This document shows, in pieces, positions 3,031 through 58,519 of a stretch of DNA of 64,000 nucleotides; the stretch's first letter is position 1; each line of letters begins with the position of its first letter. The notes beneath the pieces were generated by a model. The model had not been told where the DNA came from, made no database searches, and saw nothing but the letters and a program-made list of their open reading frames with translations. Origin of the DNA: Minisyncoccia bacterium. GTDB lineage: Bacteria > Patescibacteriota > Minisyncoccia > Phycocordibacterales > UBA9973. The stretch is from contig CBFHKH010000001.1 of the NCBI GenBank assembly GCA_965656375.1, positions 345,319-409,318 of the forward strand, given 5' to 3'. The position numbers and the translations under genes are program-made.

Positions 3031-3149
3031 TGCTCCTCGGGTAGGGTATCTCGGCTTACCGCCGCTGGTACTTTCTCGATTGCAAATCAATACGAGAAAG
3101 TCTTTCGATCCCTACACGAAAGCAAAGCAGTTTGCTTTCTCCGAGGAGC
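3031..3149 (-). ncRNA. E1: structured tRNA-flanked element. The terminal 9-bp helix GCUCCUCGG/CCGAGGAGC reuses the tRNA-Asn acceptor sequence, and there are two internal perfect hairpins
   Basis: Lies 50 nt 3' of tRNA-Asn. Its last 15 nt are identical to the tRNA-Asn 3' end. Homologous to E2 with compensatory helix changes. Confidence 0.45.
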
Positions 3150-3151
3150 TC

Positions 3152-5339: not shown

Positions 5340-7898
5340 ATGCCACGAATAACACAAAAAAAGAATATTCGGCTTGTTCCCCATGTGCGACCAGAGCGAT
5401 ATACCCTCACCATCAAGCCTGACCTCGAAGCATTTATATTTGAAGGTAAAGAAATCATATCGATAATCTTGGATAAGTCACTCCGTGCGATCACACTTCA
5501 CTCAAAAGATATCAAGATCCATACCGTAGAAATACACTCTGGTAAAGAAAGTCAGTTTGCAACAAAGATCACATATGACACTAAAAATGAAACTGCCACA
5601 TTCACTTTCAAACAACCCATCAAAAAAGGAAAAGCGAAGCTTTCACTTGTCTTTGAAGGAATCATAAGTGATACTCTTCGCGGGTTCTACCGGAGTCGAT
5701 ATACAATCGAAGGAAAAACTCGCCATTTGGCAACAACGCAATTTGAAGCAACAGATGCAAGGCGTGCATTTCCATGCTTTGATGAACCTGCGCAAAAAGC
5801 AATTTTCGACGTATCACTTATCGTTCCTGGTGATCATACTGCAATATCGAATACCCTGCCGACTCGTATACGCGAGCATGAAGGTGGATATAAGGTTATT
5901 GAATTTGCATCCACTCCTCGAATGTCCACATATCTACTCGCATTTATCATCGGCGAGTTTGAATACGTCGAAGGATATACAAAAGACAAAGTCCAGGTAC
6001 GGGTGTTCACAACGATAGGAAAGAAGCACCAGGCACAATTCGCACTCGACGTCGCAATTAAATCACTTGAATTCTATAACGAATATTTCAATATTCCCTA
6101 TCCACTTCCTGTACTCGATATGATTGCAATTCCAGACTTTGAGTCGGGAGCCATGGAGAACTGGGGCGCGATCACCTATCGAGAAACAGCTCTCTTAGTA
6201 GACAAGAATAATTCTTCCCTTTCCAACAAGCAGTGGGTAGCTGTCGTCGTTGCCCATGAGATCGCTCACCAATGGTTTGGTAACCTTGTGACTATGGAAT
6301 GGTGGACGGATCTGTGGCTCAATGAAGGATTTGCATCATATATGGAGAATCTCTGCACCGATCATATATTCCCCGAGTGGCGTATGTGGGATTTATACCT
6401 AGCCGATCGATATGCAGTAGCCCTACGCCTCGACGCACTTGCAAATTCGCATCCTATAGAAGTTACGGTACATCATCCAAATGAAATAAGTGAGATATTT
6501 GATATGGTCTCATATGCAAAAGGCTCTGCAGTGATACGCATGATTGCAGAATATGTAGGAGCGGAAAAATTCCGTGATGGATTACGTCACTATTTAAAAA
6601 AACATAGTTACAAAAATACAGTGACAACTGACCTCTGGCATTCATTTGAGAAAGCAAGCGGTAAACCTGTGAAAAAAATGATGGAATCATGGACAAAGAA
6701 AACTGGCTACCCGCTCGTTACGCTTTTACGTGGTAAAAATGGGTACAGCGCAAAGCAAGAACGGTTCTTTTCAAGCAGAATTTCTGCAAAAAAAAGTACG
6801 ACAACTACCGTATGGCAAATTCCATTCAAATATGAAAGTGATGCAGGATCCCACACTGTTCTTGCTACAGGAAAGTCTATCTCGCTCACAGGTAATTCAA
6901 TCGGAAAAATAAACCTAAACGAGGGTTCATTTATGCGAACTCGCTACGATTCAGCCACTCTTGAACATCTGAAAAGTAAGGTACTAAAAAATACTCTTGA
7001 TGTAAAAGACAGACTTGGGCTCATACGTGATTTATTCGCCCTCGCAGAAGGTGGCTATATTAAAGTAGTTGATGCCCTAGAATTCTCACGTGCATATAAA
7101 AATGAAAAGGAATATATCGTCTGGTCTGAGATCGCAAGTGGTATACAAAGAATCTACAACCTCATTTCTGACGAACCATTTACGGATACCTATAGAGCAT
7201 ACGCGCGTTCACTCTTCACACCACTTGCAGAACGTATGACCTTTGAAAAGAAAAAGGGTGAAGATCACTCAGATACATTTCTTCGTTCACTGGCACTTTC
7301 ACAAGCCGCATTCTATGGCGATGAGCGAGTAATTAAAAAAGCGCGCTCACTCTTTACAAAAATGAAGTCTCACCCAATACCTGCTGATATACGAAGCGTC
7401 GTATATACGATCGTCGCCCAAAATGGTGGAAAAAAAGAATATAATGCATTCATGAATCTATTTTTAAATGAAGAACTTCATGAAGAAAAAGATCGCTATG
7501 GTCGCGCACTCACTTCATTTAGAGATAAAACACTCCTTGCTCGAACGCTTATGTTTGCTCTCTCAAAGGATGTACGCACTCAAGATGCACCATATATGCT
7601 TGCTGCTGTATGGCAAAATACCACTGGACGAGATCTCGCATGGAAATTCATACAGCACAACTGGAAAATAATTCTTGCTCGTTATGGCGAGGGAGGATTT
7701 ATTTCGCGAATGCTTACTCCGCTCGGTAGTCATACCAAAACAAATGATGCAGTATATGCAAAGAAATTCTTTTCAAAAAATCTTGCCCCGGGAGCAGAAC
7801 GTACACTCGAACAAGCCTACGAACGAATTTTATCTAATGCGTTGTGGCTGAAAACTGACAAAACAAGTATTAAAAACTGGCTTCATAACAACTACTAA
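5340..7898 (+). CDS. pepN: aminopeptidase N (M1 family)
   Basis: GAMENWG, HEIAHQWFGN and WLNEGFASY motifs. The ATG at 5340 (MPRITQ) is preferred over the upstream TTG in the track. Confidence 0.9.
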   Translation: MPRITQKKNIRLVPHVRPERYTLTIKPDLEAFIFEGKEIISIILDKSLRAITLHSKDIKIHTVEIHSGKESQFATKITYDTKNETATFTFKQPIKKGKAKLSLVFEGIISDTLRGFYRSRYTIEGKTRHLATTQFEATDARRAFPCFDEPAQKAIFDVSLIVPGDHTAISNTLPTRIREHEGGYKVIEFASTPRMSTYLLAFIIGEFEYVEGYTKDKVQVRVFTTIGKKHQAQFALDVAIKSLEFYNEYFNIPYPLPVLDMIAIPDFESGAMENWGAITYRETALLVDKNNSSLSNKQWVAVVVAHEIAHQWFGNLVTMEWWTDLWLNEGFASYMENLCTDHIFPEWRMWDLYLADRYAVALRLDALANSHPIEVTVHHPNEISEIFDMVSYAKGSAVIRMIAEYVGAEKFRDGLRHYLKKHSYKNTVTTDLWHSFEKASGKPVKKMMESWTKKTGYPLVTLLRGKNGYSAKQERFFSSRISAKKSTTTTVWQIPFKYESDAGSHTVLATGKSISLTGNSIGKINLNEGSFMRTRYDSATLEHLKSKVLKNTLDVKDRLGLIRDLFALAEGGYIKVVDALEFSRAYKNEKEYIVWSEIASGIQRIYNLISDEPFTDTYRAYARSLFTPLAERMTFEKKKGEDHSDTFLRSLALSQAAFYGDERVIKKARSLFTKMKSHPIPADIRSVVYTIVAQNGGKKEYNAFMNLFLNEELHEEKDRYGRALTSFRDKTLLARTLMFALSKDVRTQDAPYMLAAVWQNTTGRDLAWKFIQHNWKIILARYGEGGFISRMLTPLGSHTKTNDAVYAKKFFSKNLAPGAERTLEQAYERILSNALWLKTDKTSIKNWLHNNY

Positions 7899-11725: not shown

Positions 11726-12789
11726 TGAGAGAGTAGAAAATTTCGAAGTATTTGATAATACTTTTCCATACTTGGAATATCAGCCCATTCATTGTCTCCT
11801 CCAATATCCCCACCAATTGGCCCGAATTCTATACCAGGACAATTTACTCTTGCAAAATGTCTTGCATCTGATGTTCCATTTGCTCCACGTAATGGTATTT
11901 TCTTGCCGAGCACCTCTTCGCATGTTTGTTTTAGTGATTGAATATACATGTTATCTGGAGCGGTTTGAAGAGCAGGTTCATTTTCAAGGATAGTGAGCTT
12001 AAATCCTTTTGGCATGATTTTTTTGAGGTTTTTAATAATAGAATCAGCGTTTTTTTCTACAAACCGTATGTCCAAACTAATAGTACAGTCATCTGGAACT
12101 TTATTAAGGGATGTATTACTTGTTTCTATCATACTTACATTCACTGTAGTAACCCATTCTTCTTTTTTAGGAATCGGATACTTTTTCTCTAATGAATTCA
12201 AGAATTTATTCATTGCCCAGATTGAATTTTTACCTCTCCAAGGATATGCTCCATGTGCTGATGTACCTTTTGTAGAAATACGTACAATTAAAATACCTTT
12301 TGCTTTATATACGATATCAAAATTTGTAGGCTCTCCTGCGAGCACAAAATCTGAGCGTACCCCCATATCAACTTGATACTTTGTTCCATCAAAACCTCCG
12401 ATCTCCTCATCAGTAACAAGCTGCAGACCTAAAGGGTACGAAACTGTATCTGCTACATCTTTAAATACTGTTACCAGAGCTGCAACGCTTGCTTTCATAT
12501 CCATAGACCCAACTCCGTACAATTTATTCCCTACTACTTTCGGAGTATATTGATACTCCTTACCAGCAACGACATCAATATGGCCATTTAGAATTATTTT
12601 AAATTTCTTAGGTCTTTTCTTTCTGTTGTATACCAATACACTTTTTACATTATTATGATCAAACCTTTCAATTGTAAATTTTTTTAAGTCTTGTATTGCA
12701 AGATCTAATGCCTCTTCGAGGATAAGAGGATTATCAGGTGTGGTCTTTAATTTTATAAGATTTTTAGTTAATTCAAGTATTTTCTTCAT
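11722..12789 (-). CDS. M20-family metallopeptidase (ArgE/DapE-type deacylase)
   Basis: 355 aa with the M20 dimetal-site pattern (HIDVV...GxxDMK...E). Confidence 0.7.
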   Translation of the reverse strand: MKKILELTKNLIKLKTTPDNPLILEEALDLAIQDLKKFTIERFDHNNVKSVLVYNRKKRPKKFKIILNGHIDVVAGKEYQYTPKVVGNKLYGVGSMDMKASVAALVTVFKDVADTVSYPLGLQLVTDEEIGGFDGTKYQVDMGVRSDFVLAGEPTNFDIVYKAKGILIVRISTKGTSAHGAYPWRGKNSIWAMNKFLNSLEKKYPIPKKEEWVTTVNVSMIETSNTSLNKVPDDCTISLDIRFVEKNADSIIKNLKKIMPKGFKLTILENEPALQTAPDNMYIQSLKQTCEEVLGKKIPLRGANGTSDARHFARVNCPGIEFGPIGGDIGGDNEWADIPSMEKYYQILRNFLLSH

Positions 12790-12834: not shown

Positions 12835-14190
12835 TTACCGTATCTCAGCATATACAGTTTTCTCGTTCCCATGAATTCTTTTTCTTTTACCTTCTGAAGA
12901 ATCAAGTGGCATGAAGTTTCTAAATCCCCCGATGAAATCATAGTCTACGCCATCTGTAGCAAAAAATACTCTATCAATGTATGTAAACAAAGTTCCATCA
13001 AGACTACATTCAGTAGGAGTTTTTAATTCAGGCTGAATGATATATGGACCTCTCTTTTGCAAATTACTTTTTAGGTCATCTCTGAATTTCTTGTCAATCG
13101 GAAGTCCGCTGACATGACCATAACACCCATACGCATTTTTCATTGGTTTACCGCGAAGCGTAACCATGCCCGTCCTAATTTCCGTAGAGTCAACACCACA
13201 TGACAGTAAATATTCTTCGCATAAACGAGAGAAATAGATACCAGTATAGTCTTTTGCAGCATTCCCGTTCGCCAAATACTCAATAAATTCATGTGAGAAA
13301 ATATCTTTGGGCGAAGTAGCCGTATATCCCATACCCATACGTGGCATGTACTCCTTGGTGTCGTTGATCAGTGAAGAGTAACAAGCACCTGGAGTATCAA
13401 TATTAAGCGTAAGAGAATGAGTCTTTATCACGCTTCGAAGAAATGGATCCGATAATAGAGGATGGATAACCTCAAAATCAGGCTTCTTTAATTTATCAAG
13501 TGGATCTGAAGTTCGGGCATACAGTAGATATTTACACTTACCGTTGTTAGCTTTTACGTGTTCTTTGAATTCTTTTGGACCAAGCAAACAGTCAAAGCCT
13601 GAAGCTTTTTTTACTTCTTCGCTTGTTATAAGTTCATCTTTTGATTTGCCAAATTCAGATAATTTAATTTCTTCATACTTTTGATCAGTTACAGCAAGTA
13701 ATGCAATAGGCATATTGTAGATATACTGTATCTTATGAAGATGAGCCCGGAAAGCTTGTTTAAACAAACTTTCTTCTTCGCTTCCCGGAAACAAATTTTG
13801 CAGAAACTGATACACCGCAAGTGAATTTTCTATCTCAAATATTTTGTTGCGTACCATTTCTACGACATGATCAACTGAGAGCATACTCGCAGTATCTAGA
13901 AACTGTTGTGTGAGACCACACATATCTATTTGCACGAAACAATTAGCCTGTTTTAGTCCTGTTCTGCAATATTGATAGTCAGTTGTAAATTCTCTGTTTG
14001 CTTCCACTAGGGGTATGAACGCTTGATTGTACTCTTTGTACAGCCTTTTAAGTGCGTTTATAACTACATCCGGGTATACAACAGTATATTCCGAAAAAAT
14101 GAGAGGGTTACCGTTACAATATGTAACTCCTCTTTGTGTTACAGGGCTACCGAGCACCTGGTTCGTCATACGTAGGTTGTTGTTGTTCAT
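12835..14190 (-). CDS. conserved-looking hypothetical protein of 451 aa with no recognisable family
   Basis: Long ORF with GGAGGG ribosome-binding site 8 nt upstream of the ATG; a 36-bp palindrome lies in its leader. Confidence 0.5.
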   Translation of the reverse strand: MNNNNLRMTNQVLGSPVTQRGVTYCNGNPLIFSEYTVVYPDVVINALKRLYKEYNQAFIPLVEANREFTTDYQYCRTGLKQANCFVQIDMCGLTQQFLDTASMLSVDHVVEMVRNKIFEIENSLAVYQFLQNLFPGSEEESLFKQAFRAHLHKIQYIYNMPIALLAVTDQKYEEIKLSEFGKSKDELITSEEVKKASGFDCLLGPKEFKEHVKANNGKCKYLLYARTSDPLDKLKKPDFEVIHPLLSDPFLRSVIKTHSLTLNIDTPGACYSSLINDTKEYMPRMGMGYTATSPKDIFSHEFIEYLANGNAAKDYTGIYFSRLCEEYLLSCGVDSTEIRTGMVTLRGKPMKNAYGCYGHVSGLPIDKKFRDDLKSNLQKRGPYIIQPELKTPTECSLDGTLFTYIDRVFFATDGVDYDFIGGFRNFMPLDSSEGKRKRIHGNEKTVYAEIR

Positions 14191-18117: not shown

Positions 18118-18299
18118 ATATTTTAAAAAATTATTTTTAAAAGATGTGTGATTTCACGACCTTACAAAATAAAAAAATTTTGTAAAAAAATTAATCACAC
18201 TCACACATACATTATCTTATATATAAAATGCAACTGCAATACTTTTTACAAGAAAAGTGTGGATAACTTTTTATTTTTATAAATCGTTACAAAAAATTT

Positions 18300-20381
18300 T
18301 TAACTCTGTGAACAAGAATTATTTATTTGTGCACGAGTGAGCGGACCAACTACTCCATCTTGAGAGAGACCAAAATATTTTTGCATTACCTTTATCGCTT
18401 GATCAGTTCCACGACCAAATATTCCATCGAGAGCACCTACTTGGAATCCAAGTCTCGTCGCATGAGTTTGCAAGCGCTTCACTTGAGTCACAATTCCCTT
18501 TGTAAAAGCATTATATTTACCGTCTCTTGATCCGATCTTGAGATTTTGTGATAGACGCATGGATTCCCCGCATTCTATAGCTGTAGGAGCAGTAACTGTA
18601 ATAAGTGTAGGAGTTACTGTAGGATTTGGAGCAATTGTTGTTTCACTTTTAGTGCGACAAAATGTAGTTATCGTATCAGTACAGTAGATCACACTTGGAG
18701 AGGAAGCTTTTTGATCATTATCAACAATCGAGACTGTTACGGTACTTGTAAGATTATTGTAGTTTGGATCTGAACTTGAATCAGTAATAGAGAGCGTATC
18801 GGAGTGACCACTTTCATAGTTACTATCATCAATAGCGGTCACTGTCACAACCTGCGGAATATTCCAGTTGAGTGAAGTGAACGTAAGACTCGTCGGACTT
18901 GGAGTGATCTGCGAGCCTGAAAGAGAAACAGTAACAGTACTTGTTGGTTTGGATTTGAGAGAAATACTAAACGTATCTGTTGCTCCACCTTCAAATACAG
19001 TGAGAGAAGTTTTGGTAATTCTATTGCCAAGCACTGGTTGCATAAAATGAAGAAATACGCGTCCATGCTGATTACCGACAGGTATCGTAGCAGAATCAGT
19101 ACTTGCTCCGACACCAATATCTATCGCGCCATCATTATTAAGATCACCAAGCGAAAAGACCGTATTCCCATATCGAGCACCTGAAGGACCTGCGGTAAGA
19201 TCAGTCGGGCCATTCGGTGTTGCGCTATTTATTCGGACAGTAGATTTGAGAGAACCATCGCGGTTCATGAAGTGAATGTAGAATGCGCCAAGATTTAAAC
19301 CTGAGCTATCATCAAAAAATGATCCTACTCCTATATCTGGTATGGCATCCCCATCAATATCGGCAAGATTTGCAATTGTTACCCCATAAAAATCGCTATT
19401 GCTGAGCGTTGGTCCATTTGCAGTTGTTCCATCTATTTTTTTTGTGGATTTAATAGTGCCATCACGATTCATGAAATGAATATAGACAGCACCGCGATCG
19501 GTACCAACACTATGATCACTGATAGCTCCGACACCAATATCTTGAATGCCATCCCCATCAATATCTCCAACAACTCCTACTCCGGAACCATACGAATCAG
19601 AATCAGCGAGTGTTGCGCCGTTTGCCGTTGCTCCAGTTAATTTAACTGTGGACTTTATGGAACCATCCCGATTCATGAAATGAATGTAGGCAGCGCCGCG
19701 ATTTGTACCTCCGGTATCGTCACCATCTGCTCCGATCAAAATATCTGGTATCCCGTCTCCATCCAAATCTCCAATTCCAGAAACGGAATATGCATATACA
19801 TCAGAATCAGCGAGTGTTGCGCCGTTTGCCGTTGCTCCAGTTAATTTAACTGTGGACTTTATGGAACCATCCCGATTCATGAAATGAATGTAGGCAGCGC
19901 CGCGGTCTATACCGCCTGTATCATCCTGCTTTGCTCCTACGAGAATATCAGGTATTCCATCATTGTCGAGGTCGCCTATACCAGAAGAAGCGTATCCATA
20001 AAAATCATTTGCTAGTAGTGTCGGACCATTGGCAGTACCGTTAGCAATTTTAACTGAGGATTTCAATGTCCCATCAGAATTTAAATACGTAATGTGCACT
20101 GCTCCTGCTCTGTTTGCCCCCGTATCATCTCCATATGCACCGATAAGGATATCAGAAACTCCGTCAGCATCAAGATCACCGATTACGTTTCCACTTGCCC
20201 CATAGAAATCATTAGGTAATAAGGTCGGGCCACCTGTCATACCATTTGCGATAGGCGAAGTCGATTTAACACCTCCCAGTGTCTCAGCGAAAGCGATAGA
20301 ATTAAAAGAAGTAATTAAAATAATAGCTATGATAATAGTTTTACTCAAATAAAATTTTTTAGATGTATATGTGCTCTTCAT
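18300..20381 (-). CDS. secreted FG-GAP/VCBS-repeat protein with a C-terminal peptidoglycan-binding (PG_binding_1-like) domain
   Basis: Signal peptide; repeated GDLDGDGIPDIL..DDTGG..RGAAYIHFMNRDGSIKSTVKL units; C-terminal GALDGIFGRGTDQAIKVMQKYFGLSQDGVVGPLT. Confidence 0.7.
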   Translation of the reverse strand: MKSTYTSKKFYLSKTIIIAIILITSFNSIAFAETLGGVKSTSPIANGMTGGPTLLPNDFYGASGNVIGDLDADGVSDILIGAYGDDTGANRAGAVHITYLNSDGTLKSSVKIANGTANGPTLLANDFYGYASSGIGDLDNDGIPDILVGAKQDDTGGIDRGAAYIHFMNRDGSIKSTVKLTGATANGATLADSDVYAYSVSGIGDLDGDGIPDILIGADGDDTGGTNRGAAYIHFMNRDGSIKSTVKLTGATANGATLADSDSYGSGVGVVGDIDGDGIQDIGVGAISDHSVGTDRGAVYIHFMNRDGTIKSTKKIDGTTANGPTLSNSDFYGVTIANLADIDGDAIPDIGVGSFFDDSSGLNLGAFYIHFMNRDGSLKSTVRINSATPNGPTDLTAGPSGARYGNTVFSLGDLNNDGAIDIGVGASTDSATIPVGNQHGRVFLHFMQPVLGNRITKTSLTVFEGGATDTFSISLKSKPTSTVTVSLSGSQITPSPTSLTFTSLNWNIPQVVTVTAIDDSNYESGHSDTLSITDSSSDPNYNNLTSTVTVSIVDNDQKASSPSVIYCTDTITTFCRTKSETTIAPNPTVTPTLITVTAPTAIECGESMRLSQNLKIGSRDGKYNAFTKGIVTQVKRLQTHATRLGFQVGALDGIFGRGTDQAIKVMQKYFGLSQDGVVGPLTRAQINNSCSQS
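19598..19904. repeat. 103-nt perfect direct repeat (19598-19700 and 19802-19904; period 204 nt, 68 codons) inside the FG-GAP gene
   Basis: Identical strings read directly from the sequence. Confidence 0.85.
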
Positions 20382-31660: not shown

Positions 31661-31837
31661 TTGGGGAAGCAACTAAACTGCTTTAGTTGCGTCAGGGATT
31701 CGAAAGACTTTTCTGTCATTTGGTTACAAATGCAGAAAAGTACCTGGCTACGTGGTAGCCGAAAAGCGTACTCGCGGTCCTTGTTCTTAAAAGGTGTACT
31801 GATCCTGTAAGGATCGAAATTCCCTGTCCCCAAGCCA
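31661..31837 (+). ncRNA. E2: structured tRNA-flanked element. Begins TTGGGGA (the tRNA-Gln 5' acceptor strand) and ends CCCTGTCCCCAAGCCA (an exact copy of the tRNA-Gln 3' end); contains the hairpins GCAACUAAA-CUGC-UUUAGUUGC and CUUUUCUG...CAGAAAAG
   Basis: Lies 24 nt 3' of tRNA-Gln; colinear with E1, with compensatory changes in both helices; conserved GGGAUUCGAAAGAC linker. Confidence 0.45.
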
Positions 31838-31848
31838 ATAAAAAAACC

Positions 31849-56108: not shown

Positions 56109-56140
56109 GATATAAAGTATTGTTTCTCTAAGAAACACAC

Positions 56141-56212
56141 GGCCTAGTCGCCAAGTGGTAAGGCAAGAGTCTGCAAAACCCTTATACGGCGGTTCGATTC
56201 CGCCCTAGGCCT
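56141..56212 (+). tRNA. tRNA-Cys (anticodon GCA), with an A-C mismatch in the anticodon stem and CCA encoded
   Basis: Acceptor GGCCTAG/CTAGGCC, anticodon loop CTGCAAA, T-loop TTCGATT. Confidence 0.7.
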
Positions 56213-56246
56213 CCACAAGGAATGTTCTTGTGATACAAACAAATAT

Positions 56247-56328
56247 GCCCGGGTGGCGGAATTGGTATACGCGCTAGTCTTAGGAACTAGTGGAGCAATC
56301 CTTGGAGGTTCAAGTCCTCTCCCGGGCA
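56247..56328 (+). tRNA. tRNA-Leu (anticodon UAG), class II
   Basis: Acceptor GCCCGGG/CCCGGGC, anticodon loop CTTAGGA, long variable arm, T-loop TTCAAGT. Confidence 0.85.
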
Positions 56329-56387
56329 CAACATAGGACAAGTCCTAATAATAGCCTACAAGCAATAGATATTGTAGACTGTTCCTT

Positions 56388-57110
56388 ATGGGTAAGTGTT
56401 ATTTATGTAATTTAGAAAAGCCATTAATCGAGGCCCATATTATTCCTAAATGGGCTTATAAATATCTATACCCTGAGGATGGAAACAAAAAATCTCTTAT
56501 TTTAGTTTCAAAAACTGCTAAGCCTATTAAAAGACCTATTGGTTCATATGATCCAAAAATTCTTTGTGCAGATTGTGATAATTTTATCGGGGTCTATGAC
56601 GGATATGCAAAAATCATATTAATAGATTCTCCTTTAGAGCAAAAAGATAAATACTCTGTAATAAAGAATGTTAACCGTATTAAATTTACTCTTTTTGTTC
56701 TATCTGTAATATGGAGGGCTTCAATTTCAAAATTGCCTGAAAATAATCGTATAAAGTTGGGCCCCTATGAAGAAAAATTGAGAGATATTTTATTATCTGC
56801 TAAAAATGGTTCTAGTAATCCTATGATAATTAATTTTCCTTTCGTGGTTACAAAATTTGCTGTAGGAAAACTTCCATCAGATGTAGTAAATAAAAACATC
56901 CAAACTCCGCATACTGAACGACTAGATGGATTAAACATGGCTGTTTTCTATATGCCAAATGGGTACAAAATATTTACCAAAACAGACAAACGACCTTTCA
57001 ATTCTGTCCTTCAAAAAATGAGTGGACATTGGCAAGAAGGATTGTTTGTATTAAATTTTATAGATTACGAGACATCGAAGGAATATAGAGATTTACTAAA
57101 AATTGTTTAG
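56388..57110 (+). CDS. HNH-nuclease-like N-terminal domain (CxxC...HIIP...CxxC) fused to an uncharacterised C-terminal domain of about 180 aa
   Basis: CYLCNLEKPLIEAHIIPK ... CADCDNFIG motifs. Confidence 0.45.
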   Translation: MGKCYLCNLEKPLIEAHIIPKWAYKYLYPEDGNKKSLILVSKTAKPIKRPIGSYDPKILCADCDNFIGVYDGYAKIILIDSPLEQKDKYSVIKNVNRIKFTLFVLSVIWRASISKLPENNRIKLGPYEEKLRDILLSAKNGSSNPMIINFPFVVTKFAVGKLPSDVVNKNIQTPHTERLDGLNMAVFYMPNGYKIFTKTDKRPFNSVLQKMSGHWQEGLFVLNFIDYETSKEYRDLLKIV

Positions 57111-57116
57111 CTTAGA

Positions 57117-57281
57117 TTATTCATGTTTTGGATAAATAACATTCCCCTCACGATCAATCAACATTCCATCTTTGATAACATACCCTTCAGCAATAAGTCG
57201 GTTATGTATCTTCTGTAAAATCTTCGCTAAACCAATGAGCCCTTGAATTGTCTCAGGTGGTAACCTTTTTTGTTTTTTCAT
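57117..57281 (-). CDS. putative 54-aa protein (MKKQKRLPPETIQGLIGLAKILQKIHNRLIAEGYVIKDGMLIDREGNVIYPKHE) immediately 3' of the XRE gene
   Basis: Translated by hand from the sequence; below the ORF-track length cut-off. Confidence 0.25.
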   Translation of the reverse strand: MKKQKRLPPETIQGLIGLAKILQKIHNRLIAEGYVIKDGMLIDREGNVIYPKHE

Positions 57282-57332
57282 ACTATTCTTTGTATTAGTA
57301 ATAACAAAGAGTGTATGAGCTATATGTAACGA

Positions 57333-57548
57333 TTACAACTCTGGATATATCTCTTCAGATTTAACCTTAAAGAGCTGAGAGAGCTTGATGAGATTAACTG
57401 CACTTGGCATAGCCTGTCCTCGTTCCCATCTACTAATCCTCTCTTCCCCTGTGAAGCCCATATGTAGAGAGACATCAGTTTGTTTGAGGTTGTGTATAGT
57501 GCGTAATTCTTTTAATTTATTTGGATACTTAAATTGAATGTTTTTCAT
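57333..57548 (-). CDS. XRE-family helix-turn-helix transcriptional regulator
   Basis: LKELRTIHNLKQTDVSLHMGFTGEERISRWERGQAMPSAVNLIKLSQLF matches a Cro/C1-type HTH. Confidence 0.7.
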   Translation of the reverse strand: MKNIQFKYPNKLKELRTIHNLKQTDVSLHMGFTGEERISRWERGQAMPSAVNLIKLSQLFKVKSEEIYPEL

Positions 57549-57696
57549 ATTAATATAGTAGCTAGGTTATAAATAAAAAATAAGAGAGGGTAAAATTCCC
57601 TATGTTGGAGGCTTGTTAGAATAATTTTTTAATTCTTCAATGCTATAAATTATTTTCTCTTGATGAGAGGGCAGTTCGTAAATCCATTCCTTTAGC

Positions 57697-57746
57697 GCAC
57701 ACATACAAAAAATGCACTCATTGAAGTGCATTTTTTGTATGTGTGC
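57697..57746. repeat. 21-bp perfect inverted repeat (GCACACATACAAAAAATGCAC-TCATTGAA-GTGCATTTTTTGTATGTGTGC) directly abutting E3
   Basis: Read directly from the sequence. Confidence 0.8.
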
Positions 57747-57870
57747 CCGGAGTTCCGACTCTACAGTCGGAACGTGAGAGAACTTGAAAACCCTGAGTAT
57801 ATCGCACGTAGTGAAACGAGTACGATACGAAGGGTGTACAGATCCTGTAAGAATCAAGATTCCTCGACCA
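57747..57870 (+). ncRNA. E3: partial third member of the E family. The 3' half GUGUAC-GAUCCUGUAAG-AUC-A-AUUCC is homologous to E2, and its termini resemble the tRNA-Leu acceptor and T-arm
   Basis: Block alignment to E2 nt 31790-31826; own hairpin GTTCCGACT-CTAC-AGTCGGAAC. Confidence 0.3.
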
Positions 57871-57945
57871 ATTTCCTTTCATTGACTTACACATTCTACA
57901 GTGGTATTGTTTTAGAAACAATCACTAAACCTAAAACAAAATATC

Positions 57946-58419
57946 ATGGCAACCAAGACAACTCCACCAACAGAAGAAGTAATTCCAATGAAAAAAACAG
58001 TTACTTCATTATTCCTATTCTGGAATGATAAGATGTTATTTATTCCATCGAAAGCAAATCACAGGCTTGTTGGACAAATAGATCCCCCATGTTGTTCTGA
58101 CTGCTTCACTTCAGAATCTGAGAGATTAGATTATGTAGTGAATAATTTCCTCCCTGAAAAATTATGCGGGAAAAACTTTCACAGTAATTTTTTATTAGGT
58201 GATACTCCAATAAAGTTTAATTATGATGATGAGTTGGGACACAAGTTATTTACAGGATATACTGCCTGGGTTAAACATGAAAAACGGAGGGAAATTCAAG
58301 CGGTAGAATTTCTTGTTGACCCCTCAGAAATGTGGGTAGACACAGTGGAAGTTAGAATGAACCCTGGTATTGTTGTAAGTCCTATGTTTAAAAAAGCCCT
58401 TGAACTACTATTCCCTTAG
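57946..58419 (+). CDS. hypothetical protein of 157 aa
   Basis: ORF with a TTGACT...TATTGT promoter-like sequence upstream. Confidence 0.4.
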   Translation: MATKTTPPTEEVIPMKKTVTSLFLFWNDKMLFIPSKANHRLVGQIDPPCCSDCFTSESERLDYVVNNFLPEKLCGKNFHSNFLLGDTPIKFNYDDELGHKLFTGYTAWVKHEKRREIQAVEFLVDPSEMWVDTVEVRMNPGIVVSPMFKKALELLFP

Positions 58420-58519
58420 TGTAGAATTAAAGTTTTTAATAATACCCTTGCTGCGTAATATATTACGAAGTAAGGGTATTTTATTTGCATTCCTCCCCCC
58501 AATATAGTAGTATATCCAT

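Follow-up and report, generated by a model that had tools for sequence, protein, structure and literature searches.

A probable non-autonomous cassette between tRNA-Leu(UAG) and its palindromic terminator in a Minisyncoccia genome

In a 64-kb stretch of DNA from a Minisyncoccia bacterium (hereafter the window, to which positions without a locus label refer), a small islet of genes lies between the tRNA-Leu(UAG) gene (anticodon tag; 56247-56329, plus strand) and E3 (57745-57870, plus strand), a degenerate member of a family of tRNA-associated sequences designated the E family. How the islet came to separate the two is the question raised by this locus. A first-pass annotation, made from the letters of the sequence, had proposed that a small mobile or defence islet was inserted between tRNA-Leu and an E element that originally followed it or, alternatively, that E3 is the attachment-side remnant of the islet itself. 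The features named there, which comprise tRNA-Cys (56141-56215; both tRNAs called by ARAGORN and Rfam), tRNA-Leu, open reading frames (ORFs) of 240 and 54 amino acids (p240 and p54), an XRE-family regulator, a palindrome and E3, were all found at or within a few bases of the positions given. Comparison with other loci and contigs, labelled L001 to L090, leads us to conclude that the 1,371-bp islet is probably a non-autonomous integrative cassette, inserted by a large serine recombinase (LSR) acting in trans between the 3′ end of tRNA-Leu(UAG) and its palindromic terminator.

Junctions of the islet with tRNA-Leu and its terminator

The insert (1,371 bp, about 56331 to 57696) is flanked by two hybrid sites with a short common core, G(G/C)GCACA, each of which combines one host-type arm with one element-type arm. 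At the left junction, the B′ half of the attachment site is made up of the last bases of the host tRNA-Leu gene plus its trailer, which run into the core GGGCACA (56324-56330). This is followed by a cassette-side arm, P_S (56331-56348), containing a 14-bp palindrome, TAGGACAAGTCCTA, at 56334-56347. At the right junction, the element-type arm, P′, consists of the last ~33-37 codons of an LSR gene (57600-57701, minus strand), as revealed by tblastn and by nucleotide alignment to L086. The homology to the L086 LSR 3′ end stops at the core GCGCACA (57695-57701), and a perfect palindrome of the host that represents the B half of the site (57697-57746) begins within it.

Both element-type arms have counterparts in L086. 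Read on the reverse strand, positions 57701-57152 are collinear with L086 4662-5212 (83.7% identity over 552 bp), in a match that spans the last LSR codons, the XRE gene and a gene designated p49. The first 25 bases of a second site in L086, site b (6285-6383), agree at all but one position with the reverse complement of window 56348-56324 (L086 6285-6309, 24 of 25 bases, 96% identity), and the right part of the site matches the reverse complement of 57705-57621 (78% over 86 bp). Written in the reverse-complement orientation of the window, site b reads TTAGGACATGTCCTATGT-TGTGCCC-TAAAGCAATGGATTTATGAAC, the left junction reads TTAGGACTTGTCCTATGT-TGTGCCC-GGGAGAGGACTTGAACC, with the tRNA-Leu side last, and the right junction reads GCATTTTTTGTATG-TGTGCGC-TAAAGGAATGGATTTACGAAC. 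The core TGTGCC is common to both junctions and to the LSR genes of L086, L087 and L001. By their sequences, site b, the left junction and the right junction correspond to the pattern expected of attP, attL and attR, with the joined islet ends (attP) present as a continuous site in L086. The same layout occurs at L090 1918-1960, where an analogue of the P_S palindrome, TTGCTACATGTAGCAA, lies just before the core, and in 1.4 Mb scanned, the only genuine occurrences of such a palindrome-plus-core motif are these three (window, L086 and L090). The one-base difference in the right core would place the crossover within TGTGC, which corresponds to GCACA on the forward strand (56326-56330 and 57697-57701).

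The palindrome on the host side of the right junction was originally described as a perfect inverted repeat of 21 bp; it is indeed perfect, although inverted-repeat and fold analysis give arms of 22 nt (57697-57718 and 57725-57746) around a 6-nt loop. Its fold has a z-score of -10 relative to shuffled controls, and Rfam returned only chance-level matches to miRNA hairpins. From its sequence and the arrangement in relatives, it appears to be the terminator-type hairpin of the host tRNA-Leu gene, displaced 1.37 kb downstream by the insertion. We considered whether the palindrome might instead be an operator for the XRE regulator, and rejected this because L002 has an equivalent directly behind tRNA-Leu and, in L001, an equivalent borders another element.

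These two loci belong to the closest relatives of the host. Genes for a bacterial 16S rRNA, a class A RNase P RNA and six tRNAs are present in the window, and the IF-2 encoded there is nearest to those of metagenome-assembled genomes (MAGs) of Paceibacteria (Patescibacteria, Candidate Phyla Radiation [CPR]), at 77% for L001, 74% for L002 and 66% for L003. The gene order infB-rbfA-tRNA-Cys-tRNA-Leu is widely kept across relatives, and yet tblastn searches with p240, p54 and the XRE protein found no match in any of 80 related loci. In L002 the site is empty, with a palindromic terminator-type hairpin beginning four bases after tRNA-Leu. L001 retains, in window order, a homologue of p157 (the gene downstream of E3; 40% identity), SecG (93.5%) and, as the next gene, a binding protein (65.5%), as determined by tblastn. 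Between tRNA-Leu and these genes it carries a different insert of 6.4 kb that has the same core and encodes a 552-aa LSR (Resolvase, Recombinase and Zn_ribbon_recom domains), an XRE regulator and an 1117-aa protein. At the far end of this insert is a palindrome of window-like design, located just upstream of the promoter of the p157 homologue. The L001 LSR gene meets tRNA-Leu at the identical point, GCCGATGTTTCTACC-TGTGCCC-GGGAGAGG, so that a complete element in a sister genome uses the same target; as a consequence of this position, the LSR ends in ...STCA-RERT* when integrated versus ...STCA-LILHFARTFFERLTD* in an intact copy.

Given a palindrome directly after tRNA-Leu in L002 and one before the p157 homologue in L001, the ancestral order was tRNA-Leu, palindrome, p157, and the comparison indicates that two different elements, the islet of the window and the LSR element of L001, entered between tRNA-Leu and the palindrome. 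The base composition agrees: G+C content falls from ~0.42 to 0.30-0.36 after tRNA-Leu (56400-58500), and is 0.319 across the islet interval (56331-57695) compared with 0.403 for the whole window. The proposal that the spacer between tRNA-Leu and E3 is a later insertion is thus upheld by its att-like junctions, its low G+C content, its absence from 80 of 80 related loci, the empty site in L002 and the occupation of that site by another element in L001.

The LSR element of L001 (12007-18436) also contains unusual inverted duplications, in which ~120 bp from the 3′ end of the LSR gene (12030-12150) recur in the opposite orientation at 13560-13680, joined to a block of ~300 bp (13680-13973) that is the inverse of 18134-18436. 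These may reflect recombinase-driven inversion, a second nested insertion or an artefact of MAG assembly.

Related cassettes in recombinase genes and the genes of the islet

The contig that supplies the attP-like site has a distinctive gene order, consisting of a 589-aa LSR, a 71-aa XRE regulator, p49, a 266-aa protein (p266) and a Shedu-type SduA_C gene, with ArdC nearby. Two contigs labelled Ferruginibacter, L087 and L088, encode an LSR 93% identical to that of L086, and in these the LSR gene runs uninterrupted through P_M, TGTGCCC and P′, with a P′ that is 94% identical to site b over 85 bp. L086 therefore represents an L087-like LSR gene into which a 1.64-kb XRE-p49-p266 unit has been inserted exactly at the core, and the unit provides a substitute, in-frame LSR C-terminus. 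A soil metagenome contig, L090 (1-4307), contains an LSR 3′ end followed by two tandem cassettes, each consisting of a core GTGCCC with ~100 nt of LSR 3′ sequence (91% identity between the two), an XRE gene and cargo. Unit 1 carries a PemK/MazF toxin and ends in the palindromic arm noted above, right before the next core; unit 2 carries a 189-aa protein without a family match and a protein with a tail-collar domain, and no far end of it was located. A third XRE gene at L090 3924-4274 has the same operator-like repeat, and the layout of this contig resembles that of an integron, but on a serine recombinase.

For the L086 LSR, the nearest relatives bear the annotations Ferruginibacter, Chitinophagaceae, Hanamia, Mucilaginibacter and further Bacteroidota, and L089 also has TraG/TrwB-like and DUF5018 genes. 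The G+C content of these Bacteroidota-type LSR contigs (0.33-0.35) matches that of the islet. Since a 552-bp module with 84% nucleotide identity occurs both in a CPR chromosome and in Bacteroidota-type contigs, the comparison suggests that the module was transferred between phyla. The genes found directly 3′ of the LSR genes are of defence type and differ from one contig to another, including OLD/AAA (Gabija GajA-like), UvrD-like helicase and Shedu SduA_C genes (L087 11792-13594, L089 9462-12135 and L086 6641-7843), such that the LSR 3′ end behaves as a hotspot for cargo.

The following mechanism probably accounts for these arrangements. The original target would have consisted of ...CTCCCGGGCACA joined directly to CATACAAAAAATGC..., corresponding to the tRNA-Leu 3′ end and the terminator, whereas the site of the cassette itself would comprise the P_S arm, the TGTGCC core and the P′ arm, the last being a copy of the last ~35 LSR codons. 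An LSR supplied in trans, presumably of the family that furnished P′, would recombine the two, delivering a load composed of the XRE regulator, p54 and a single cargo gene, p240. In the parent elements of Bacteroidota type, a cassette of the same kind enters the same core inside the LSR 3′ end and replaces the C-terminus of the recombinase, and cassettes can accumulate there in tandem. The two junctions, the attP-like join in L086, the filled and uninterrupted LSR sites of L086 and L087, the tandem array of L090 and the empty or otherwise occupied tRNA-Leu site of relatives are direct observations; the identity of the recombinase that acted and the roles of p54 and p240 are deduced.

The alternative that fares best is that the islet is a decayed full-length LSR element, similar to that of L001, whose recombinase and most of whose cargo have been lost by internal deletion. 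Full elements do use this site, as in L001; a full element would also leave an LSR 3′ fragment, the XRE gene and p54 on the terminator side; and the islet contains no recombinase, just the 37-codon fragment. However, integration of a full element would set the body of the recombinase gene against tRNA-Leu, as it does in L001, whereas the window has at that position an 18-nt palindromic arm identical at 24 of 25 bases, core included, to site b of L086, with an analogous arm in L090. A random deletion scar is not expected to be conserved at three unrelated loci, and we therefore regard decay from a full element as unlikely. The islet shares its ends and its XRE-led layout with the cassettes of L086 and L090 while carrying different cargo, which points to a discrete cassette that needs a recombinase in trans.

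Several considerations weigh against insertion of such a cassette in trans. The core repeat alone (6 of 7 bases) is not significant, so that the case depends on the junction comparisons, and the cassette architecture is seen in three loci only (window, L086 and L090). No LSR gene beyond the 37-codon C-terminal fragment was found in the 64-kb window, the part of the 840-kb genome that was searched. Neither the P_S arm in viral contigs nor the P′ arm in metagenome contigs was recovered by exact-pattern scanning, and a scan of viral contigs for LSR proteins likewise gave no match. The taxonomic labels of L086 to L089 are those of MAG annotation. Finally, homologous recombination within a conserved LSR 3′ segment of ~45 bp is another conceivable route of entry for the cassette in L086, although it cannot explain the junction at tRNA-Leu.

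Taken more broadly, and more tentatively, the same loci might represent an integron-like system built on an LSR. Small XRE-led cassettes bearing toxin, defence or other cargo, each with a spare recombinase C-terminus that serves as half of an attachment site, would be arrayed in tandem in the LSR 3′ end of conjugative or mobilisable Bacteroidota elements, and could also jump to the tRNA-Leu 3′ end in a CPR chromosome. We consider this possible, though doubtful in its full extent.

The recombinase fragment in the islet is encoded at 57603-57713 and matches residues 553-589 of the L086 LSR over 37 residues (73% identity, tblastn); because a recombinase gene of its own is missing, the element is classed as non-autonomous. 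The 71-aa XRE-family helix-turn-helix protein (57333-57548, minus strand; HTH_3, E = 2e-10) is 87% identical to the XRE protein of L086, and XRE genes lead every cassette in L090; it is the regulator of the cassette. The proteins of the islet are singletons at 90% identity, and their sole source is one contig of 840,184 bp.

The XRE gene and p54 (57117-57281, minus strand) had been described as a convergent pair and as a possible toxin-antitoxin-like or phage-type switch. They do not converge on each other: both genes point in the same direction, with XRE upstream, and it is the pair that converges on p240. The sole homologue of p54 is P0036 (73% identity), which adjoins XRE in L086. In addition, p54 has 50% identity with the C-terminal portion of ORFs of 83-86 amino acids that overlap the start of the LSR gene in L086 (2783-3034), L087 (9775-10026) and L089 (7117-7377). 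These ORFs have no Pfam match, and their C-terminal 50 residues constitute the p54 family. A position overlapping the recombinase start is typical of accessory or directionality factors of recombination, and this position suggests that p54 has an accessory role; it is probably a recombination accessory or directionality factor. A toxin-antitoxin function is not favoured, given this paralogy to a small ORF at the LSR gene start: p54 does not belong to a recognised toxin family, its pairing with XRE occurs in two loci only and its paralogues lie upstream of LSR genes without an XRE gene. A pair of XRE gene and toxin gene does occur in a sister cassette, as XRE and PemK in L090. The structural model of p54 comprises one long helix and a three-stranded sheet (pLDDT 89.6) and has no match in the PDB, nor does the protein match Pfam, PADLOC, PHROG or NCBIfam families.

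The cargo gene p240 (56388-57110, plus strand) encodes a protein with the motif C4-x2-C7, H17-I-I-P20, C60-x2-C63. The first-pass annotation read this as an N-terminal HNH motif followed by a C-terminal domain of no known identity. The motif itself stands. Among 29 homologues of similar length, none of them annotated, residues H17, P20, G52, C60, C63, F103, W109, R110, S114 and G125 are invariant and C4 is nearly so. The nuclease assignment is weak, since HNH_5 hits occur in 13 of the 29 family members at 9-14 bits, relative to a cut-off of 27.5, and cover model positions 1-22 of 56 only. The HNH case is limited to the first 20 residues, along with the conserved histidine and zinc-type cysteine pairs; the 42 residues from the histidine to the second cysteine pair exceed the typical spacing. 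The protein has no match in Pfam (E<=1), NCBIfam or PADLOC and matches phrog_19960 (2e-18), a family without assigned function. Its AlphaFold2 model is confident (pLDDT 90.8), but neither a PDB sequence profile search nor Foldseek gave a fold or a PDB neighbour, and the sole structure match is one uncharacterised myovirus (phage) protein in BFVD. Neighbourhoods of the p240 homologues are varied and of accessory or defence type, with BrnT/BrnA, methylase, NmeDI-type and Fic genes. Together with the Shedu- and Gabija-like genes behind the sister LSRs, they make a defence or addiction role plausible; a nuclease role is possible. The gene starts 60 nt 3′ of the tRNA operon, in the same direction and with no terminator in between, and would be transcribed by read-through from that operon.

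Beyond the islet and E3 lies p157 (157 aa; 57946-58419, plus strand). Its homologue in L001 is syntenic directly upstream of secG, which places p157 outside the islet as a host gene, and with only 10 representative homologues among 1.8 billion proteins it appears to be fast-evolving and lineage-restricted. A promoter scan indicates a promoter-like site at 57882-57910, and an inverted repeat with 20-nt arms (58441-58480; 90%, no loop spacer) between p157 and secG probably serves as the terminator of p157. A similar 22-nt motif, GTATTGTTT..AGAAACA, with a small inverted repeat, occurs at 56117-56138, just 5′ of tRNA-Cys, and at 57904-57925, just 5′ of p157. The p157-side copy overlaps a -10-like TATTGT, and the two may be a shared promoter or operator element. 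This weak direct repeat (D1; 56117 and 57904) was also considered as a pair of att sites and rejected because neither copy falls within the homology breakpoints.

E3 and the E family

E elements in the window occur at 3035-3150 (minus strand), 31661-31838 (plus strand) and, for E3, 57745-57870. E3 had been placed at 57747-57870 and aligned with the 3′ half of E2; it starts two bases earlier, and aligns with both E1 and E2 at the 5′ module and with E2 at the 3′ module. Its ends had been likened to the acceptor strand and T-arm of tRNA-Leu, and for the 5′ portion this resemblance is real. E3 begins with an acceptor-like strand, GCCCGGA, and a first hairpin (57752-57773), followed by GAGAGAACTTGAA, which is the reverse complement of tRNA-Leu TTCAAGTCCTCTC with one mismatch and represents an antisense T-arm. 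The 3′ acceptor strand is missing. The 3′ end reads ...ATTCCTC and then GACCA in place of the expected ...CCTCTCCCGGGCA, and the 18-19-nt repeat of the tRNA 3′ end is not retained, so that the closing helix cannot form. The fold z-score of E3 is -3.5, compared with about -6 for E1 and E2. E3 is related to the E element of L016 (nhmmer, E = 9.6e-8), with which it has in common the Leu-type core GAGUAUAUCG...ACGAUACGAAG, shared less closely with L031; in L031 and L036 an E element directly follows tRNA-Leu(tag). With the cassette subtracted, the order tRNA-Leu, palindrome, E3 is that of other E loci. Thus, E3 is a truncated member of the E family, probably a decaying host element, which the insertion has pushed 1.37 kb from its tRNA.

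It could be argued instead that E3 is an att-side remnant, or that the whole E family consists of scars or attachment sites left by integrative elements targeting tRNAs, so that the islet and E3 form one unit. E elements do end in a repeat of the tRNA 3′ nucleotides plus trailer, like the identity block of integrase sites of the T-loop type, and E3 abuts the palindrome, which is half of the target. The right junction (57695-57701), however, lies to the left of the palindrome and thus leaves E3 outside the insert, and E3 shares nothing with L086, L087 or L090. Many relatives that lack the islet have E-type elements after tRNA terminators, with 22 such elements and no islet in between, and L001 uses the same target even though no E element lies between its palindrome and the promoter of its p157 homologue. 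The pairing of the E 5′ strand with the 3′ block also includes G:U wobbles and bulges, which point to constraint at the level of RNA. We consider a common origin of E3 and the islet highly improbable, and the proposed tie between the E family and tRNA-targeted integration is not supported, the target being the junction of the tRNA 3′ end and its terminator. Least credible of all is a reading of the segment as host DNA of ancestral origin that relatives have lost, or as a chimera created in assembly, with Bacteroidota sequence inside a CPR contig: one genome only carries it and the nearest relatives of its module are in Bacteroidota-labelled contigs, but on either side the single 840-kb contig continues as syntenic CPR sequence, the breakpoints fall exactly at the recombinase core with the tRNA and terminator intact, and the G+C content and the absence from 80 loci speak against an ancestral origin.

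As for the E family itself, a script that sought the last 12 nt of each tRNA within 700 nt detected 24 cases, all of them downstream and none upstream, comprising E1, E2 and a further 22 that follow tRNA-Cys, Tyr, Leu, Lys and Trp in relatives. The family was seen in L005, L007-L009, L011, L015, L016, L018, L024, L027-L029, L031, L036, L038 and L041, and E elements follow at least seven tRNA species (Asn, Gln, Leu, Cys, Tyr, Lys and Trp) across Paceibacteria. An E element consists of 100-190 nt after the terminator-like hairpin, with strong folding (z about -6) and a 5′ end antisense to the repeated tRNA nucleotides. The exact repeat, usually 15-19 nt, begins in the T-loop and is accompanied by 1-12 nt of trailer; it reaches at least 12 nt in 19 of the 22 reference elements and 15-19 nt in 16. 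Because the interiors of eight E elements do not align (MAFFT and RNAalifold), statements on structure are based on single-sequence folds and direct inspection. In these, a tRNA is followed by a palindromic terminator-like hairpin and then by an element that a helix of 12-19 bp closes. The 5′ strand of this helix runs antisense to the 3′ end of the tRNA, and an intervening hairpin may or may not be present. One element with G:U wobbles and bulges in the helix is that of L015, and its 5′ strand does not copy that of the tRNA. Interior motifs recur across genera, namely GAAAG after the antisense T-loop, GUGACC and GUAC-hairpin-UGUAA. Rfam contains nothing that matches E2 or E3 at gathering or relaxed thresholds, the family as a whole has no Rfam match and no description of it was found in the literature. 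Its features suggest a previously undescribed kind of structured RNA or miniature element, widespread in Paceibacteria.

Some E loci show further duplication. E elements are in tandem at L005 9745-9942 (minus strand), where the repeat runs 30 nt into the second element, and in L007, L009 and L027 the E element is followed by sequence similar to the terminator hairpin behind the tRNA. What is repeated in these four loci is thus the tRNA 3′ end plus terminator, which suggests duplication or gene conversion at the DNA level. Between tRNA-Cys and tRNA-Leu in L003 (2035-2260) lies a degenerate E-like element with the 5′ strand GGACTAGGAG, a GGTGTACTGCATCTGTAAGATGTCGAAAG module and a diverged 3′ end, apparently another decaying copy like E3.

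Comparison with known cassette systems

For the E family, the closest analogue is the rtT RNA of the Escherichia coli tyrT operon, in which tRNA-linked repeats copy the tRNA 3′ end downstream of the gene. E elements share the position 3′ of a tRNA gene and the repetition of its 3′ end, and differ in adding an antisense 5′ strand and conserved internal hairpins and in accompanying at least seven tRNA species; the rtT family in Rfam does not match them. With E3 separated from the islet, a family that copies tRNA 3′ ends becomes a subject independent of integration, and the islet beside the tRNA can be described as a probable recombination event whose junctions are defined at the level of single bases.

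Elements that are flanked by att sites, lack a recombinase and are moved in trans are known from other bacteria. The pseudo-SCC elements and composite islands of staphylococcal cassette chromosomes (SCC), whose recombinase (Ccr) is itself a large serine recombinase, and the cis-mobilisable elements (CIMEs) of streptococci are integrated site-specifically and in tandem. By its sequence, the islet resembles these in being att-flanked, in having no recombinase of its own and in occupying a specific chromosomal site, and the cassettes of L090 are likewise in tandem. It differs from them in its donor-side site, which is located within the coding 3′ end of the recombinase gene, with the cassette bringing a replacement C-terminus; in its target, the boundary of a tRNA 3′ end with its terminator; and in the XRE gene that leads each cassette. 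Tycheposons of Prochlorococcus and their satellites are integrative elements that target tRNAs by means of tyrosine or large serine recombinases, and their cargo-only derivatives form variable islands beside tRNAs. The islet is similarly tRNA-targeted and cargo-only, but it occurs in another host phylum, has a core of just 5-7 bp in place of a partial-tRNA direct repeat and shares 84% nucleotide identity with elements of yet another phylum. In mycobacteriophages with integration-dependent truncation, attP lies within a gene for a repressor or a tyrosine integrase, which carries a degradation tag. An attachment site in a coding region and an integration event that alters a protein C-terminus are found here as well, in the L001 LSR, although in this case the enzyme is an LSR.

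Integrons, finally, consist of a recombinase gene and a tandem array of small cassettes, mostly with single cargo genes, at one adjoining site, and depend on the tyrosine recombinase IntI, attC hairpins and a common promoter. L090 has the corresponding order of a recombinase gene followed by a tandem array of cassettes whose cargo includes a toxin. Here, by contrast, the enzyme is of the serine type, there are no attC hairpins, insertion takes place within the recombinase gene and the cassettes have their own regulators. A literature search for cassette arrays of serine recombinases found no description, only papers on classical integrons. If recombinase-less cassettes do dock and stack at the coding 3′ end of an LSR gene, they would constitute a platform for cassette capture distinct from integrons. 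The 84%-identical module shared by Bacteroidota-type elements and a CPR chromosome offers a lead on gene flow, and possibly on host association, in a group with few known partners; should the integron-like reading prove true, it would imply recent exchange across phyla and perhaps a physical association of the two organisms. What is unusual for cassettes of this kind is their docking in the recombinase gene's own 3′ end, their arrangement in tandem arrays and their apparent distribution from Bacteroidota to CPR.

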